Source of the DNA: a virus
Taxonomy: Duplodnaviria > Caudoviricetes
Length of the DNA: 64,000 nt
Virus record (IMG/VR): IMGVR_UViG_3300008110_007313
Reading direction: 5' to 3' (one strand)
Part shown: positions 7,647 through 30,309 of the stretch, in pieces
Position numbering within the stretch: position 1 is the first letter of the stretch
Layout: each line of letters begins with the position of its first letter
Translations under genes and position numbers: made by a program
Notes under the pieces: generated by a model
The model's database searches: none
What the model was told of the DNA's origin: nothing
The model's input: the letters and a program-made list of their open reading frames with translations, nothing else

Positions 7647-8607
7647 GTTGTTTCTTCCTTAATTCTATTTTGATTCTGCTGGTTTCTCTAGCTTGAAGTA
7701 TAGTTAGCAAAGTTCCAAGTCGTCCATACTTCTTTACTGCATCATTTACATCTTTGCAATCTTCCCAGTTGGGTATGCTTACTGCCCAGCCCAGTTCTAC
7801 GGCGCGGTCAATCAAGTCCAACCCTGCTTGGTCTTGGTCGGGCACCACAGTGATTTCTCGTCCTAGACCACGGATCATTCTAGCCTGTGCATCACTGATT
7901 TCATTGTGCATGACTGCTAGGCCGCCAATACTGAGTGCATCAAATATGCCTTCGGTCACAATCACATGTTGCCAGTCTGGATGCTGTAAGTCAGTGCCGA
8001 ACACATACCCTGGCTGCACATCAGAAATAAATTTAGGAATCTTGTTGTCAATAAATCTTGAAGTGTAGCCTACAATTTTGTTTTCGTGTGTGAACGGCAC
8101 AATTACACAAGGTCTGGTCCAGTGAACTCCATCGGTGCGGATAGGAGTCATCATGGGAAAGTCTTCAGGTACACGTCGATCACGAATGTAGTCCCAGTAC
8201 CTAGGATGTTCCTGTGTGATCAATTCACTGCCCGGTGGCAGCTCACGTTCTTCAAAATCAATGCCTTGTAATACACTGAACACACGTTGTCGGTCTTCTA
8301 CAATGCCGTAGATACTACGATGGCGTAAACTTTCCAAGTTAGCCAGTTCAATATCTCGTTCAGGCACACCCAGCCAACTCAAGAGCCTACGGGCCTTGAA
8401 GCTCACAGAGCGGCCAAGGATAAAGCTGGCGGTGTAGCCGCAATTGAAACAGTGATAGCTCCAGCCTTGTTCGTTTGTTTTGATTCCGCCTCGTTGACGT
8501 CGGTCTGGGCTGTTGCCGTTGTGATGACAACATGGAGCGTTGAAACTGACCCACCCACTGGGACTGGCTTTGCGTTTTGCAGGTAGGTATTGAACAATAT
8601 CAAGCAT
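7624..8607 (-). CDS. 61: DNA primase (T4 gp61-like)
   Basis: N-terminal Zn site (PCCH..HCFNC), TOPRIM VTEGIFDA, PDQD, KDVND. Confidence 0.9.
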   Translation of the reverse strand: MLDIVQYLPAKRKASPSGWVSFNAPCCHHNGNSPDRRQRGGIKTNEQGWSYHCFNCGYTASFILGRSVSFKARRLLSWLGVPERDIELANLESLRHRSIYGIVEDRQRVFSVLQGIDFEERELPPGSELITQEHPRYWDYIRDRRVPEDFPMMTPIRTDGVHWTRPCVIVPFTHENKIVGYTSRFIDNKIPKFISDVQPGYVFGTDLQHPDWQHVIVTEGIFDALSIGGLAVMHNEISDAQARMIRGLGREITVVPDQDQAGLDLIDRAVELGWAVSIPNWEDCKDVNDAVKKYGRLGTLLTILQARETSRIKIELRKKQLVKRLRS

Positions 8608-16303: not shown

Positions 16304-16332
16304 AGTATATAGCACAATACAATTGAAGTCAA
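16304..16332 (-). promoter_or_regulatory. sigma70-type promoter
   Basis: TTGACT-N17-TATACT. Confidence 0.65.
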
Positions 16333-16362
16333 AAAAGCAGGTACCTTTTTAGGGGTACCTGC
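16331..16362 (-). terminator. intrinsic terminator of the early small-gene operon
   Basis: GCAGGTACC stem, followed by T6 on the minus strand. Confidence 0.75.
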
Positions 16363-16369
16363 TGTAAAG

Positions 16370-16401
16370 CCTGGGCCGGAGCCAACCGTATAGTGCCCAG
16401 G
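16370..16401 (-). ncRNA. candidate structured 3'-UTR element carrying an anti-RBS sequence
   Basis: CCTGGGC/GCCCAGG stem enclosing CGG-TTGGCT-CCG; GGTTGGCTCC is the exact complement of the GGAGCCAACC leader at 17809-17818. Confidence 0.35.
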
Positions 16402-16416
16402 AAAAAAGGAAATGAA

Positions 16417-16521
16417 CTACCTCACCACTACCACTTGAAAACCTTGTTGCTGTTGTTCGTCTGCTTCATCTTTGGTATCCACAGCAAACAAAAACAACTC
16501 ACCATCATAAATTTTGTACAT
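16417..16521 (-). CDS. small acidic protein (34 aa)
   Basis: MYKIYDGELFLFAVDTKDEADEQQQQGFQVVVVR; AAGGA SD; below the ORF-track cutoff. Confidence 0.6.
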   Translation of the reverse strand: MYKIYDGELFLFAVDTKDEADEQQQQGFQVVVVR

Positions 16522-16529
16522 AGTGTTCC

Positions 16530-16682
16530 TTAAAAAATAGCATTTGCGGCTGCCGCGGCATTCCAGGCGCTGAACACAATGTTCATCCAGCCCAACCCGT
16601 TGTGACCTGCTTCAAAATCTCGTTTGGCCCATTTAAGCATGAGCCAGGCAAGAAAAATATTTAAAATAGTCCAACCACTCAT
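16530..16682 (-). CDS. small membrane protein (50 aa)
   Basis: MSGWTILNIFLAWLMLKWAKRDFEAGHNGLGWMNIVFSAWNAAAAANAIF; ATGA overlap. Confidence 0.6.
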   Translation of the reverse strand: MSGWTILNIFLAWLMLKWAKRDFEAGHNGLGWMNIVFSAWNAAAAANAIF

Positions 16683-16786: not shown

Positions 16787-17808
16787 TAAGCTGCCTTCAT
16801 GCAAGTTGTCTCTGACATGCGCTTCCAGTTGTTAGGGAAGCTCTTGCGCAGGTCTGCAATCTTGAGCGCCATGCGCAAGGATACCTCACGCAACCGATCT
16901 TTGTTGGCATGCATAAAGTCAATAATGTCGTCTTGTGCATACTCGTTAAAGTCGTAGTCGGCAAACAACACACCGTCTTTGGCAATCTGTTTGATACGCA
17001 AGAGCTTGTCACGCATGGTGTCCAAGGTCAAGTCCAGATAGTGGCAACGACTTTGCAAGGCGTCCAAGTGGTCACGCAATTTTTGCGACTTCATCTTGTC
17101 GAACTTCAAGTTAGTGATGAAGATAACGCTACCTTTGAACTCAAAGCGGTCTGGGATACCCTCACGGCGCAGGGCACTGCTCTCTGACAACCAGCTAATA
17201 GTACGCTTCTTACCTGAGTCCAAGGCACCCTTGAGCAAGTTAAGAGCAACGTCATCCAACAAGATGCTGTCACAGTCGTCAAACACAACCACACAATTGG
17301 CGTCACTGTACTTGTACAGAGTCTGGTACAGACCAATGGGGGTTGCTGAGCCTTTGACTACCTCAGCACGGAGGCGCTTGCCTGCCAGCTTGTCAAACAT
17401 TGTGGCCTTGTCAATTTCTTGCTCAACGCCAAAGCTCTTGCCCACGCCAGGAGGGCCGCTCACAATCATAGCACGGATGTCACCACTCACTGTGGCCTTT
17501 GTCATCTCGTGCAGGATGTCAAAACGCTCACGGATACGATCCATGGCCTCGTCGTCTGTCTCGACTACTGTGGGCTTCTCAAAATGTACTGTATTGTCTT
17601 GCATGGCATCTCCTGTTACATATTCAAAATCTTGGATGGAATCTACTTTGATACGCACGGTATCTGGGCAGTTGGGGAAGTTACCATCATTCTTGACAGT
17701 AACATAATTGCCTTTGGCGCCTGAGGCATAGCCTGACACCAAAGTAAAAGCAATATTGCGGACGGGCTTGTTACGATACTTACCCTTAATGATACGAATG
17801 GCACTCAT
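16786..17808 (-). CDS. AAA+/P-loop ATPase with N-terminal extra domain
   Basis: GPPGVGKS Walker A, VVVFDDCD Walker B, FITN, LQSR, SLR; AAGGAG SD. Confidence 0.88.
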   Translation of the reverse strand: MSAIRIIKGKYRNKPVRNIAFTLVSGYASGAKGNYVTVKNDGNFPNCPDTVRIKVDSIQDFEYVTGDAMQDNTVHFEKPTVVETDDEAMDRIRERFDILHEMTKATVSGDIRAMIVSGPPGVGKSFGVEQEIDKATMFDKLAGKRLRAEVVKGSATPIGLYQTLYKYSDANCVVVFDDCDSILLDDVALNLLKGALDSGKKRTISWLSESSALRREGIPDRFEFKGSVIFITNLKFDKMKSQKLRDHLDALQSRCHYLDLTLDTMRDKLLRIKQIAKDGVLFADYDFNEYAQDDIIDFMHANKDRLREVSLRMALKIADLRKSFPNNWKRMSETTCMKAA

Positions 17809-17838
17809 GGTTGGCTCCTTGTTGTGCGTTAAAATTAA

Positions 17839-17867
17839 ATTATAGCAGATGTTGAATTAAGCGTCAA
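17839..17867 (-). promoter_or_regulatory. early sigma70 promoter
   Basis: TTGACG-N17-TATAAT. Confidence 0.85.
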
Positions 17868-18258
17868 CCTTGACAGCCTCAATTCCAAACTGTTCGAGCA
17901 ACACGGCTCGGCAGGCATCTACGGTGCGTTTAGTTACCACTACCTTGCCGCCCATGAATCCCACATAGAGATTTCGGTGTGTTACAAACTTGATCTCACC
18001 ATCGGCACCTGTGTGCTTTTGACGAGCGGCAGGTTTGGCTGTCGCTGTCTTGGCAGGTGCCTTTGCAGGCTTTTCTGCTTTGGCAGGCACTGCCGCAGGC
18101 ACTGGTGCTACCAGCTTAGGTGCGGCATTGACAGACCCATGCTTCTTGTCATACTTGGCAATCTGCTCTGGAGTCATGCCCCAAGTGGCTAACAGACGTT
18201 TGACTTCTGTACCGGGCAGTTGATTCCAGTGGATGATTTTGTCGGTCCAGTTCTGCAT
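17857..18258 (-). CDS. hypothetical early protein with Ala/Pro/Lys linker
   Basis: 133 aa; AAAAGGAGCCACA SD. Confidence 0.75.
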   Translation of the reverse strand: MQNWTDKIIHWNQLPGTEVKRLLATWGMTPEQIAKYDKKHGSVNAAPKLVAPVPAAVPAKAEKPAKAPAKTATAKPAARQKHTGADGEIKFVTHRNLYVGFMGGKVVVTKRTVDACRAVLLEQFGIEAVKVDA

Positions 18259-18286
18259 TGTGGCTCCTTTTAGTTACTATACAAGT

Positions 18287-18315
18287 ATTATAACAAATTG
18301 GCAATTATTGGTCAA
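18287..18315 (-). promoter_or_regulatory. early sigma70 promoter
   Basis: TTGACC-N17-TATAAT. Confidence 0.85.
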
Positions 18316-18320
18316 CCGTT

Positions 18321-18500
18321 TTACGCAGAAGCAAACAACTTGCCCATTTCGCGGAAAACTACACGGCTTGCACGAAGCTGGTCAAATGTGAGATCGTCCT
18401 CACCGCTGTCTTGCATCTGTTGCAGGGTTTCCAGCAGTCCGGGCAAGGCCCAATCTTTTTGGTATTGCTGGACAACTTGCATGGCTTGTTCGAAGTTCAT
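18321..18500 (-). CDS. hypothetical early protein (59 aa)
   Basis: MNFEQAMQVVQQYQKDWALPGLLETLQQMQ..; AAAGGAGCCACAA SD; not in the ORF track. Confidence 0.7.
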   Translation of the reverse strand: MNFEQAMQVVQQYQKDWALPGLLETLQQMQDSGEDDLTFDQLRASRVVFREMGKLFASA

Positions 18501-18531
18501 TTGTGGCTCCTTTGTTTCTTACTATGCTTAT

Positions 18532-18560
18532 ATTATAGCAAAATGGGAATATTCGGTCAA
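18532..18560 (-). promoter_or_regulatory. early sigma70 promoter
   Basis: TTGACC-N17-TATAAT. Confidence 0.85.
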
Positions 18561-18566
18561 CCAGCT

Positions 18567-18594
18567 AAAACTGCTGAAATTTTCAGCAGTTTTT
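18567..18594. terminator. bidirectional terminator-like perfect inverted repeat
   Basis: AAAACTGCTGAAA-T-TTTCAGCAGTTTT, with T runs on both strands. Confidence 0.7.
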
Positions 18595-18612
18595 GTGGTA
18601 TTTTTGCAACAT

Positions 18613-18822
18613 TTAGCCGTTGCGACGGGCTAACAGACGTACAAAGTCTTGTTGCAATTCTGCAACATCTTCGTTTGACACATAGAAGTCAGTGGTAGGA
18701 TCGTAGTACTCGCCTGCTTTGGGATCGTAGTACAGAACCTGACCGTTGGGGTAGTGGAAAGGACCTTCTAAGCCCTTGCGTGGACCGTATTCCTTGTTGT
18801 GCTTGAAAACGATGTAGCTCAT
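18613..18822 (-). CDS. hypothetical early protein
   Basis: 69 aa (GPFHYPNGQVLYYDPKAGEYYDP); AAAGGAGCCACC SD. Confidence 0.75.
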   Translation of the reverse strand: MSYIVFKHNKEYGPRKGLEGPFHYPNGQVLYYDPKAGEYYDPTTDFYVSNEDVAELQQDFVRLLARRNG

Positions 18823-18848
18823 GGTGGCTCCTTTGTTGCTATGTTGTT

Positions 18849-18877
18849 ATTATAGCAAATTGGGTATTTTGGGTCAA
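18849..18877 (-). promoter_or_regulatory. early sigma70 promoter
   Basis: TTGACC-N17-TATAAT. Confidence 0.85.
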
Positions 18878-23213: not shown

Positions 23214-24130
23214 GGCAAGAACTTTTGATAGATGCGCCCTTCTCTCGCATCTTGATCACTCCAGTGTGCAGCCGCTAGGTCATTGATCCATTGGCTGCGA
23301 TCAAACTGTTGTGGTTGTTCGATTCGAGTGATATCTTTGTTGGCCACTGCCCAACTCACACAGCTGGAATCATCAGCAAACACAGGAACTCCAGAACATG
23401 CTGCTGCCACGCTGGCGCTGCTGTTGAAAAACACTGCGGCATGAGCATTTGCTAGATTGTCCAACAGTGTGCTGGTTCTTGGGTCAACTACTGTAATGCC
23501 AAGATTCACATGGTGTCGTGATTGATACTTCACAAAGTCTCTAGCTTCATAAGAACCCGGATGTGGTCTGATCAATATTGGCCTTTTGCTGTATTGGCGT
23601 ATTTGCCCAATTTTTTGTTCCAGCCAAACCAAAGGATCCAGTGTTTTCATTGCGAATCCGCCATCTCGTTGCATGCACACCAGCACATGCCCACGTTTGC
23701 TACCGGTATAGGGCAAGAGATCCACATTCAGGCTGGCACGTATTTCGTTCCATTTGTCCGGCGTGCTGTTGCGATTGGCATATTCTGCTTTGTCGTAGAA
23801 CGGTCCGCCGAGACTGTATCGCAAATAGGTGCCAGTGTTGTCCAGGTACTTGAAACAGCTGGCATCTATGCACATGGTGTGGCTGCCACGACGAGCCTGT
23901 TCAGCAATGATTTGTTTGCGCAAGGTAATGTTGGGTCCACCAGTATTGGTTGTTGCCCAACCCAGGATCACTGCCAGTTTAGCAGGGCGATATTGACAGT
24001 CCCATTCCACACGCACAGGATCGCCTGACTGTTTTACACCTTCAGCAAAGCTCTCCAAACACTGTATCTTCCTGGCATGCTTGCGAGGGTTAGCTACAGA
24101 ACTAACATACACTACAACATCATTGGCCAT
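23201..24130 (-). CDS. KpsS/Capsule_synth-like GT-B protein (paralogue 3)
   Basis: LIRPHP, AVFFNSSASVAAACSGVPVF, DRSQWINDLAAAHW..AREG. Confidence 0.65.
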   Translation of the reverse strand: MANDVVVYVSSVANPRKHARKIQCLESFAEGVKQSGDPVRVEWDCQYRPAKLAVILGWATTNTGGPNITLRKQIIAEQARRGSHTMCIDASCFKYLDNTGTYLRYSLGGPFYDKAEYANRNSTPDKWNEIRASLNVDLLPYTGSKRGHVLVCMQRDGGFAMKTLDPLVWLEQKIGQIRQYSKRPILIRPHPGSYEARDFVKYQSRHHVNLGITVVDPRTSTLLDNLANAHAAVFFNSSASVAAACSGVPVFADDSSCVSWAVANKDITRIEQPQQFDRSQWINDLAAAHWSDQDAREGRIYQKFLPYLR

Positions 24131-25771: not shown

Positions 25772-26526
25772 TTACGCTCAATGTCCTCTTCCACACAATC
25801 TTCGCCGTACTGAATTTCAATTAACTTGAGTGGTTGATTGGTTTCATTGCACAACTGATGCCACTCACCAAGTTTGATCCAGGTGTGTTGGTGTCGCGCT
25901 GGACTAGCCATCAAGTCATAATCAGTGCTGTGTGGATCCACTGTGTATACTGTGGCTTCACCTTCAGCAACAAACCAAAACTCTGCACGTTTTTCGTGCC
26001 GTTGCATGCTCAAGCATGTCTTGGGATTTACTGTGAGTTCTTTGAGTTTGGTGTTGGCACCCACTTCGTGTAACACTCGATAGTAACCCCAAGTGCGTTC
26101 AGTGCGCGGTTTCTTCCAGTCCTCAAGAATCCAGCTGGAGCTGTTCTTCTTGTCATGTCCCCCAACACCAAACACAAACTCAACGTCGGGCACTGACATT
26201 TCAGGAATGTTTTCCTGTGTGCGATCTCCGCCGTTGGCAAAAATGATTTCAGCATTGGGATGTCGTGCTTTTACCATACGGATAGCATCACAACTGGACC
26301 CATCGTCGTCGTTGTAAACCACAACTTCGTCAACCACTGCAAGATTGCCAACAATGGCCATGCGCTCTTGCAAAGGCATGAAAGGCCTACCTTTTTTACG
26401 GGTAAGCCATTCATCAGAGTTAAGTCCTACTATCAGTCTATCACCCAGTGTTCGGGCAGCTTTGAAATAGGCAATGTGTCCAGAGTGCAGGGGATCAAAT
26501 CCCCCAGTAACTATAACAATTTTCAT
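25768..26526 (-). CDS. HIGH-family sugar nucleotidyltransferase (RfaE-II/TagD-like) fused to a type II PMI-like cupin
   Basis: TGGFDPLHSGH, GLNSD, ANGGDR; C-terminal RTWGYYRVL, LSMQRHEKRAEFWFV, IEIQYG. Confidence 0.88.
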   Translation of the reverse strand: MKIVIVTGGFDPLHSGHIAYFKAARTLGDRLIVGLNSDEWLTRKKGRPFMPLQERMAIVGNLAVVDEVVVYNDDDGSSCDAIRMVKARHPNAEIIFANGGDRTQENIPEMSVPDVEFVFGVGGHDKKNSSSWILEDWKKPRTERTWGYYRVLHEVGANTKLKELTVNPKTCLSMQRHEKRAEFWFVAEGEATVYTVDPHSTDYDLMASPARHQHTWIKLGEWHQLCNETNQPLKLIEIQYGEDCVEEDIERK

Positions 26527-27002: not shown

Positions 27003-28261
27003 TATATGTTTTTCTCATTGAAATATTGATTTATTTCTGGCCAAAGCTTTTTCCAATCAGTGCCGCGCCGTTGATCAATTGTGTCTAATGTTTGTTTTAG
27101 CATGTGCAATCGATCAATTTCGACAGTACCAGCAGCCGCAAGAGCTGCAATACCTTCCAGACGTTTTCGAGACTCAATGTCCCAGTCTGTAGCAATAGGA
27201 AATTCAGTTATCAGTTGATCAAACTGATGTTGAAAAAACTCACCACCAAAAATTTGAGGATGATATATTTTCTCAAGTCCGCTGTCAACCAAGTGATAAT
27301 CCTGCAGAATTTTAGGATTGATTTTTTTATACTCTGCAATTCTTTGTTGCAGATCAATAGCAGTTTTCATTGTTAATGAGGTTATTACTTGATGTACTGA
27401 CAATGCCATCCACCGATGCTGCATTAACGATTCAAAATTGCGCTGCCAATTTTGTAAATTCAACCCATAGCGAACAAACTCTGCTTGATCGCCCCAGCAG
27501 TCTAAACTAGCAGACACATGAACTTGTTTGATTTTTCTTTTAACTGTGAGATCTCGACCAGCATCAATAAACCGTTGCAGGGTTTCTGCATTGCAGTTGA
27601 GATTTGTGTTTATTGCAAGCTCAAGATTTTTATTGTCAAGGCTGTATAAGATCTCTAAGATTTGCCAGAATTCATTTTGCAACAAAGGCTCGCCACCGAG
27701 TATACTGAGCCTTGACAACTTTGATCCATTGTTTTTTAACCAATCAAGATATAGTGAAAAAAGCTGATCACGATCTGGAGATTTATTCACAGATTCTATG
27801 CCCAACGGGTATGGTCCAAACTTTTTAAGTTCTTGGTTTAACTTGGAACTAAACACTGGCAAACAATATACACATGCTAGATCGCAGGTATTGTTTAGAT
27901 AAATTTCGCTGATGCGAGGTGTAACATCTAGGTTATCAGTAGCAAAATCAACAGGGGTCAATCCTGAAATTTGATTGTGGTGCAGGCGGTCGCTAACGCC
28001 GCCTGCTTGCTCTATGTCTTGGCAGTATTCACAACCGCGTCCCGACGGCCATTTGCCTTGCAGCATAAGGCGTCGATCATCAAGAACTTCAGGAGTATTG
28101 TGAAATGAATCAAAAGTTTCTGGGGTCACTTCGACAGGAGAAACTCTATGACAACTTGACGACTTGCCATTGTAGAGTCTTAGAGTATTCCAACCCCATT
28201 TAAGCACACATGCAGATGCATTGTGAATAGGAAAAACGCTGTTATTCCCATTCTTCGTCAT
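27002..28261 (-). CDS. radical SAM enzyme with N-terminal SPASM/twitch-like Cys domain
   Basis: CDLACVYC, GGEPLL, INTNL, SASLD; N-terminal C..SSCH..CEYC; start set at MTKNG. Confidence 0.9.
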   Translation of the reverse strand: MTKNGNNSVFPIHNASACVLKWGWNTLRLYNGKSSSCHRVSPVEVTPETFDSFHNTPEVLDDRRLMLQGKWPSGRGCEYCQDIEQAGGVSDRLHHNQISGLTPVDFATDNLDVTPRISEIYLNNTCDLACVYCLPVFSSKLNQELKKFGPYPLGIESVNKSPDRDQLFSLYLDWLKNNGSKLSRLSILGGEPLLQNEFWQILEILYSLDNKNLELAINTNLNCNAETLQRFIDAGRDLTVKRKIKQVHVSASLDCWGDQAEFVRYGLNLQNWQRNFESLMQHRWMALSVHQVITSLTMKTAIDLQQRIAEYKKINPKILQDYHLVDSGLEKIYHPQIFGGEFFQHQFDQLITEFPIATDWDIESRKRLEGIAALAAAGTVEIDRLHMLKQTLDTIDQRRGTDWKKLWPEINQYFNEKNI

Positions 28262-29562: not shown

Positions 29563-30309
29563 TCAATCCTTAAACAATTTTATATAATCTACTGTATTAG
29601 TAGGAAAGAATTTTAATCTGCGCGGTTGCTCATAAAATCTTTTATTGGTTTTTTGCATTACCAACATATGACACATCGCTGTTTCAAAAAAATCAAGATC
29701 AACTGCGTATTCCTTTCCGTCGGTAACATCAGTTGATATTTTAACACACTTTTCAATAGTGTTAAAGTATTCTTGGTTAGACTCTGCAACAATGTGACAA
29801 AAATCTTCAACCTTTTCATCCACAGGGTGCAGTCCACACTCTTTCAAAAACAACGACACAGCGGCCGGGCTATTCCAAAAACTTGTTATGTCAAGCACGT
29901 GGTCAGCATCTGCAAACCAACCTTCAGACTGATGTACTTTGTCCAACAATGTGTTAGATAATACTTCAATCTGTTCTTGAATAGTAACTCCATCTTGACG
30001 TAGAATCACAGGTTTGTTGAACTCAGGAATAGCCTTTTTCCACTTTTTTAATCCCATCAATATAATCAATAGCCTACCAAACGTACTAAACGAACTTGAA
30101 CTAATGATTGTATTGCCTGCTGCTCTTTCTTTGACCATATCAATATCTGGATGTTTTACTTGATAGAATCTAGAAAGAGGATAGTGATGATGTAAGTTGT
30201 TGCCCTTAACAAAAGAAGGAAACGCAGAGTTTCCTTCTTTTGTACAACAGTCCATTAGAGCTGTTACTGTATGCCCTAATGCACCGTTGTGGTAGCAAAA
30301 AGCAAGCAT
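29563..30309 (-). CDS. hypothetical protein
   Basis: 248-aa ORF coupled between gp32 and uvsX. Confidence 0.65.
   Translation of the reverse strand: MLAFCYHNGALGHTVTALMDCCTKEGNSAFPSFVKGNNLHHHYPLSRFYQVKHPDIDMVKERAAGNTIISSSSFSTFGRLLIILMGLKKWKKAIPEFNKPVILRQDGVTIQEQIEVLSNTLLDKVHQSEGWFADADHVLDITSFWNSPAAVSLFLKECGLHPVDEKVEDFCHIVAESNQEYFNTIEKCVKISTDVTDGKEYAVDLDFFETAMCHMLVMQKTNKRFYEQPRRLKFFPTNTVDYIKLFKD

Follow-up and report, generated by a model that had tools for sequence, protein, structure and literature searches.

To our knowledge, pairing between a 3′UTR and the ribosome-binding site (RBS) of the same transcript is documented for very few bacterial-type mRNAs and for none in phages. Full-text literature searches likewise returned no phage example of such pairing. 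In Staphylococcus aureus, the 3′UTR of icaR carries an anti-SD motif that pairs with the SD of its own mRNA, so that the initiation complex is blocked and a substrate for RNase III arises (PMC3868564). In Alphaproteobacteria, CcsR and the cuckoo family are cut from the 3′UTR of a co-transcribed gene and show pyrimidine-rich anti-SD sequences in their loops (PMC8034643, PMC4615179). Furthermore, distant anti-SD-like sequences, located hundreds of nucleotides downstream, have been described (Gill et al., 2025, PMC12697547) which, through base-pairing with the RBS, inhibit initiation as well as promoting decay. On the phage side, the PeSLs of T4-type phages are presented, in the available portions of the reports, as terminator/promoter motifs acting as recombination points (PMC2839356, PMC4122927), and for the ncRNAs that derive from UTRs in phiKZ no target is known (PMC8545117, PMC10914365).

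The locus considered here belongs to an uncultured freshwater jumbo phage with a genome of 127.6 kb, of which the window is a stretch of 64,000 nucleotides. As in icaR, an anti-SD motif in the 3′UTR is complementary to the SD region of the same mRNA. Unlike icaR, the host of the element is a phage, the target heads a four-ORF operon 1.2-3.1 kb away, and there is no sequence relationship; moreover, the phage seed reaches 5-6 nt into the gene-specific spacer, stands on a dedicated scaffold hairpin by the terminator, and is supported by phylogenetic covariation, not by experiment. With CcsR and the cuckoo RNAs the phage module shares the layout of a 3′UTR anti-SD hairpin, known here from sequence alone, but its seed is single and private in sequence, and the one target that could be detected belongs to its own operon. 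Membership of that family, defined by two to four adjacent hairpins each with a CCUCCUCCC loop, was considered and rejected, since the hairpin here is single and its loop different; a search of Rfam gave no family at gathering score, and a permissive scan yielded only hits with E > 2. Whereas the sequences of Gill et al. are generally depleted by selection, the phage one is positively maintained and co-evolves with its RBS (PMC12697547).

The likeness to the PeSLs, as far as the available portions of those reports describe them, is one of layout: a terminator stem-loop abuts an early promoter (16363..16304) and borders variable small ORFs, and leader and 3′ modules are exchanged by recombination. 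An anti-RBS seed is not described in those portions, and the seed hairpin constitutes an extra element upstream of the PeSL-like junction.

The ATPase operon and its 3′ hairpin

The features of the operon are collected in Table 1. Its promoter presents 11 of 12 consensus matches at a position conserved in relatives, and transcription is guessed to start near 17832. The first gene encodes a member of phrog_1250, a family of unknown function; T4 NrdC.10 homologues often carry the wrong label of thioredoxin. The tiny ORFs between the ATPase and the 3′ module are variable cargo. The overlap between terminator and next promoter forms a composite junction of the PeSL type, and the same junction exists in nearly all relatives.

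Table 1. Features of the ATPase operon (positions of the window)
Feature	Position	Strand	Remarks
Promoter of the ATPase operon	17839..17867	minus	sigma-70-type: TTGACG, 17 nt, TATAAT and upstream TG
Target: SD and spacer of the ATPase, GGAGCCAACC	17809..17818	minus	abuts ATG 17808..17806
AAA+ ATPase, 340 aa	16786..17808	minus	phrog_1250; homologue of T4 NrdC.10
Three tiny ORFs, 35/50/34 aa	16786..16679, 16682..16530, 16521..16417	minus	two hydrophobic
Scaffold hairpin presenting the anti-RBS	16370..16401	minus	fold and stem covariation
Seed GGTTGGCTCC	16378..16387	minus	perfect complement of 17818..17809
U-rich single-stranded linker, 6 nt, hairpin to terminator	16364..16369	minus	fold, alignment
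Intrinsic terminator: 10-bp stem, 8-nt loop, T-run	16330..16363 (stem-loop 16363..16336)	minus
Next promoter: TTGACT, 17 nt, TATACT	16304..16332	minus	-35 box overlaps terminator T-run

On the minus strand, no terminator-like site was found from the promoter at 17867 down to 16363, so that the seed and the target SD lie on one transcript. The hairpin begins after the last stop codon of the operon (16417), which places the anti-SD in the 3′UTR of the target's own transcript, as is the case in icaR. In the alignment of relatives, one T of the linker is invariant and two neighbouring T are present at 90% or more.

The preliminary description had reported, just before the operon terminator, a hairpin bearing an exact antisense copy of the RBS. 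The minus-strand sequence at 16401..16370 is exactly the one it gave, the hairpin ends 6 nt from the terminator at 16363, and the perfect 10-nt complementarity to the SD-to-AUG region of the ATPase (17809-17818) is borne out, with the two sites 1.4 kb apart. The RBSs of the genes that start at 18258, 18500 and 18822 do show the 7-nt matches as well. The structure comprises a 7-bp outer stem, a 6-nt asymmetric internal loop, a 3-bp inner stem and a 6-nt loop; the description had placed the seed in this small inner loop, which holds for six of its bases, the other four being in the weak inner stem. Alone, the hairpin folds at -15.5 kcal/mol, as described, and together with the terminator at -33.1 kcal/mol (z -3.6); in the local fold, the mean unpaired probability of the seed is 0.61. 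Both the seed 10-mer and its complement occur only once in the 127.6-kb genome. A reading of the hairpin as a plus-strand RBS (GTG at 16393) was discarded, since this GTG sits in the internal loop, which is variable among relatives. The window and the whole-genome sequence differ only at 23945, 23960, 24011, 29057 and 36718, with N in neither.

How far can the match be trusted from one genome? In 200,000 dinucleotide shuffles, a complement of at least 10 nt between an 80-nt 3′UTR and a 23-nt RBS window arises with P = 0.0017. This value, about 0.002 per operon, is not decisive given the many intergenic regions inspected, and the match within this window alone is only suggestive. All 29 terminator-like sites of the genome were scanned without another SD-type 3′-to-5′ match, and a general rule for the other operons of this genome was consequently rejected (1 of 29 sites). 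On the minus strand, a 9-nt complement was also seen between an RBS-like site at 29570 (AGGATTGAT before an ATG opening 353 codons) and 27275-27345; it was dismissed because the terminator-side stretch lies inside an ORF and the match is within chance expectation.

Conservation and joint switching among relatives

A near-identity DNA search of a curated phage collection returned no close relative. IMG/VR holds hundreds of relatives, from which about 200 loci were taken via different ATPase queries, with ATPases 75-97% identical. In most of them the module lies just upstream of the first terminator after the ATPase, at 46 to about 2100 nt from the ATPase stop, an interval filled by differing small ORFs. 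A perfect complement of at least 8 nt is present in 106 of the 109 distinct RBS/3′-context combinations; its distance to the T-run of the terminator is 40-53 nt, or 17-20 nt in the few cases in which an internal T-run had been hit, and the same matches were found in one survey in which the 3′ windows were set from the terminator alone, not from the match.

Within class A, to which the window belongs, the ten seed bases are invariant in the alignment of 81 distinct versions, and the first nine bases of the target are identical in 88 of 88 distinct relatives, with a variable leader upstream of them. The outer stem shows compensatory changes in all seven of its pairs, with 98.4% of cells paired; none of 500 shuffles reaches the observed pairing, and slid registers come nowhere near it either. 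Furthermore, the U-G and G-U wobbles of the stem are valid only in ATPase-sense RNA, which identifies the module as an RNA structure on the operon transcript.

Beyond class A, relatives in which the ATPase RBS differs carry a pre-terminator element that differs in a compensatory manner. In class A (the window and 88 distinct combinations), the RBS GGAGCCAAC faces the 3′ element GTTGGCTCC. In class B, where the SD core itself is changed, the corresponding sequences are GGGCTAGTAA and TTACTAGCCC; in class C, GGAGCGAAA and TTTCGCTCC; in class D, GGAGTTGGC and GCCAACTCC, with four double transitions relative to A; and in class E, GGAGCTAA and TTAGCTCC, reaching 10-11 nt in some members. A held-out set, obtained with the most divergent ATPase as query, contributed another two types with a perfect 10-nt match, whose ends are CTAGA and CTAG, which brings the matched pair types to at least seven, arising in at least six to seven places on the ATPase tree. 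When each RBS class is set against each 3′ element class, self pairs reach 9-10 nt and cross pairs 4-7 nt, except for two chance cells of 7-8 nt; the shuffle P values range per class from 5e-5 to 6e-3. The GGAG/CUCC part of the complementarity is shared across most classes. Covariation in related phages, which the preliminary description had proposed as a check, was thus found both in the stem pairs and in the joint switching of RBS and seed.

On the ATPase tree (a quick tree), the non-A classes lie nested within class A, and class E turns up in at least three places. The class D ATPase is 95-96% identical to its class-A relatives, and homology stops immediately before the ATG; recombination of the promoter-leader module is therefore the origin of the switches, which makes independent switch events hard to count. 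Despite this recombination, the 3′ element still matches the RBS. Since at least seven matched sequence pairs surround one conserved gene, base-pairing is the only economical explanation, and natural compensatory variation on this scale is found in none of the known cases compared.

In one relative (L066:2760-2870), a class-A hairpin stands in tandem with a class-E seed and the small hairpin belonging to it; the ATPase RBS there is of class E and is matched perfectly by the class-E seed only. This tandem is probably the remnant of a module switch. In L019 and L021-L027, a pyrimidine tract, CTCCTTTTT, lies about 15 nt upstream of the hairpin and forms a 9-nt complement of AAAAAGGAG in the ATPase RBS; by its sequence, the tract would be a second, overlapping anti-RBS competing for the same SD.

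In several divergent relatives (L068/L184, L186, L191, L194, L199 and L217), only 6-8 bp can form, with a mismatch, wobble or bulge, and in L193 and L205 a bare terminator stands and the element is absent. Because some divergent relatives have a weak version or none, the element is to be regarded as common but dispensable. In the cultured homologues Ci1 and Vibrio K446 no match was found. In Pseudomonas phage PA5oct (MK797984.1; L183:3830-3860), a small hairpin is located 20 nt past the stop of the homologous ATPase, and its 3′ arm, ATGCTACT, complements over 8 nt, within the stem, the spacer of the RBS of the same gene, AGTAGCAT; this match is a weak lead, in a cultured phage with RNA-seq data.

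Scaffolds, target range and mode of action

The seed is presented by three kinds of scaffold among the relatives. In class A it lies in the loop of a GC-rich hairpin; in classes B and D and in the L068/L187 group, in the large loop of another hairpin; and in classes C and E a small covarying hairpin follows immediately 3′ of the single-stranded seed. A U-rich linker and a terminator come after every scaffold, and predictions leave the seed largely accessible. In equilibrium predictions for seven full-length transcripts, folded from the guessed start to the terminator (1.2-1.7 kb), the RBS-seed helix belongs to the minimum-energy structure in 7/7, with pair probabilities of 0.77-1.0. For the transcript of the window, all ten RBS-seed pairs are formed, and it takes 11.5 kcal/mol to force the RBS open. 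In class A, the 14-18-nt loop that holds the seed is closed by a conserved stem, and the full 10-bp helix is for this reason strained and pseudoknotted. The class-A minimum-energy folds reach the helix by opening this stem, which covariation supports, so that the true complex is probably, in terms of these models, a pseudoknotted loop-to-linear contact.

Regarding targets, the preliminary description had proposed a 3′UTR element, acting as an sRNA or in cis, that would shut off translation of a whole class of early genes. The first part, an element pairing with the ATPase RBS, receives strong support from covariation; the class-wide shut-off does not stand, the covariation being specific to the ATPase RBS. 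Indeed, in classes B-E the RBSs of the neighbouring early genes are unrelated in sequence and do not change along with the seed. In whole-record searches of class B and E contigs, the ATPase RBS and the seed were the only occurrences in a regulatory context, the extra 8-mer sites in those records looking like coding sequence with neither hairpin nor terminator around them. A search for trans targets in the genome and in the records of relatives gave none. The 7-nt matches at 18258, 18500 and 18822 reflect a leader family that the early promoter cassettes have in common.

Four tandem cassettes of this kind occupy 17839-18877 on the minus strand. Each drives one small gene and combines a strong promoter that is nearly the same in all four (TTGACC, 17 nt, TGnTATAAT) with a stereotyped leader and AAGGAGCCA. 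The genome has a fifth copy at position 26053 and related ones at 8301 and 412, and the ensemble has the look of a mobile module of early promoter and leader. A perfect 12-bp hairpin (18567-18593), located between the first of the early cassettes and the second and flanked by an A-run and a T-run, is terminator-like on both strands.

Complementarity, conservation, stem covariation, the joint switching of RBS and seed and thermodynamic plausibility are observed at this locus. We consider it likely that they reflect a selected RNA-RNA pairing which occludes the ATPase RBS and limits synthesis of the protein, in cis and/or in trans; the occurrence of the pairing in infected cells, its repressive effect and the nature of the molecule carrying the seed are what we infer from them. 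The 3′ end of the transcript would constitute an anti-RBS module, formed by an accessible seed on a scaffold hairpin, a U-rich linker and the terminator. The seed would pair with the ATPase SD and spacer, located at the 5′ end of the very transcript that carries it, and would thereby block 30S binding at the ATPase start. The output from a strong promoter and a strong SD would thus be limited once the transcript is complete, by an icaR-like closure in cis, and/or as 3′ fragments accumulate, in trans. The strict placement of the element on its target's own transcript favours cis action, whereas action in trans is favoured, or at any rate permitted, by the dedicated scaffold and by the existence of many orthogonal types.

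A tentative alternative, which we regard as possible, is that the same pairing is carried only by a processed 3′UTR-derived sRNA of about 70-90 nt acting in trans. Such an RNA would target ATPase mRNAs, including those of co-infecting relatives, and the classes would result from selection for orthogonality, comparable to the incompatibility groups of plasmids under antisense control. In every class the module is laid out like an Hfq-type sRNA; it combines the shared mRNA terminator with a conserved accessible seed, as 3′UTR-derived sRNAs do; and in classes C and E the seed is single-stranded 5′ of the small hairpin. Moreover, a purely intramolecular helix has no obvious need of a conserved scaffold, and many discrete specificity types exist among ATPases at least 75% identical. 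3′UTR-derived sRNAs with anti-SD hairpin loops exist (CcsR, PMC8034643), and UTR-derived ncRNAs have been seen in the jumbo phage phiKZ (PMC8545117, PMC10914365). Nevertheless, the element always shares a transcript with its only detectable target, whatever the cargo between them, with no demonstrable internal promoter or processing site; the searches of the genome and of the relatives' records yielded no other target, and modular recombination explains the class switching at least in part.

Carried further, the same idea would make the RBS/anti-RBS pair a trans-acting specificity determinant between competing jumbo phages, a role that we hold to be rather unlikely. If it were true, the 3′ RNA of a resident phage would silence the NrdC.10-like ATPase of co- or superinfecting relatives of the same RBS type, and the orthogonal pair types would be escape variants, in an exclusion or incompatibility system resembling the antisense-RNA groups of plasmids.

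The limitation of ATPase synthesis by occlusion must also be weighed against a 5′-3′ pairing that serves the stability or storage of the mRNA, shielding its ends from RNases as in Bacillus subtilis hbs, and not repression. This we judge unlikely: although a 14-bp contact of the 5′ UTR with the 3′ UTR modulates RNase access in hbs (PMC5737220), and the phage helix stands about 14 nt from the predicted 5′ end, the helix covers SD and spacer in every class, so that it must compete with ribosomes, and distant anti-SD-like sequences destabilise mRNA rather than protect it (PMC12697547).

Could the two sites act instead as DNA-level inverted repeats flanking the ATPase cassette, recognized by a DNA-binding protein, an invertase or a transposase? 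In duplex DNA the two are indeed inverted repeats of each other, and a switch at one end comes with a switch at the other. However, one copy invariably overlaps the SD, with a fixed spacing to the ATG, and the other is always part of an RNA scaffold, as its loop or 5′ flank, with a distance from the terminator that hardly changes. The scaffold stem covaries with U-G wobbles valid in sense RNA only, and wherever the junction was read, seed, terminator and next promoter lie on the ATPase strand, so that no inverted copy was seen; neither is there a linked recombinase. This reading is very improbable, and was ruled out on the RNA-specific wobbles and the fixed RNA context. Finally, chance complementarity next to an ordinary conserved terminator-proximal hairpin, for which speaks only the modest single-window P given the number of intergenic regions inspected, is extremely improbable and, barring misassembled loci, refuted by the comparative data, with no fewer than seven distinct types of matched pair at the same pair of positions and a product of class P values below 1e-12.

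Implications for T4-like and jumbo phages

The natural matched sequences, at least seven in number, constitute ready orthogonal RBS/anti-RBS pairs for reporter tests and for synthetic biology. At the same time, the locus shows that the recombination of terminator/promoter cassettes can remain compatible with a long-range RNA contact. Altogether, the pairing points to a tight dosage control of the NrdC.10-like AAA ATPase, a widespread and uncharacterised protein of T4-like and jumbo phages.
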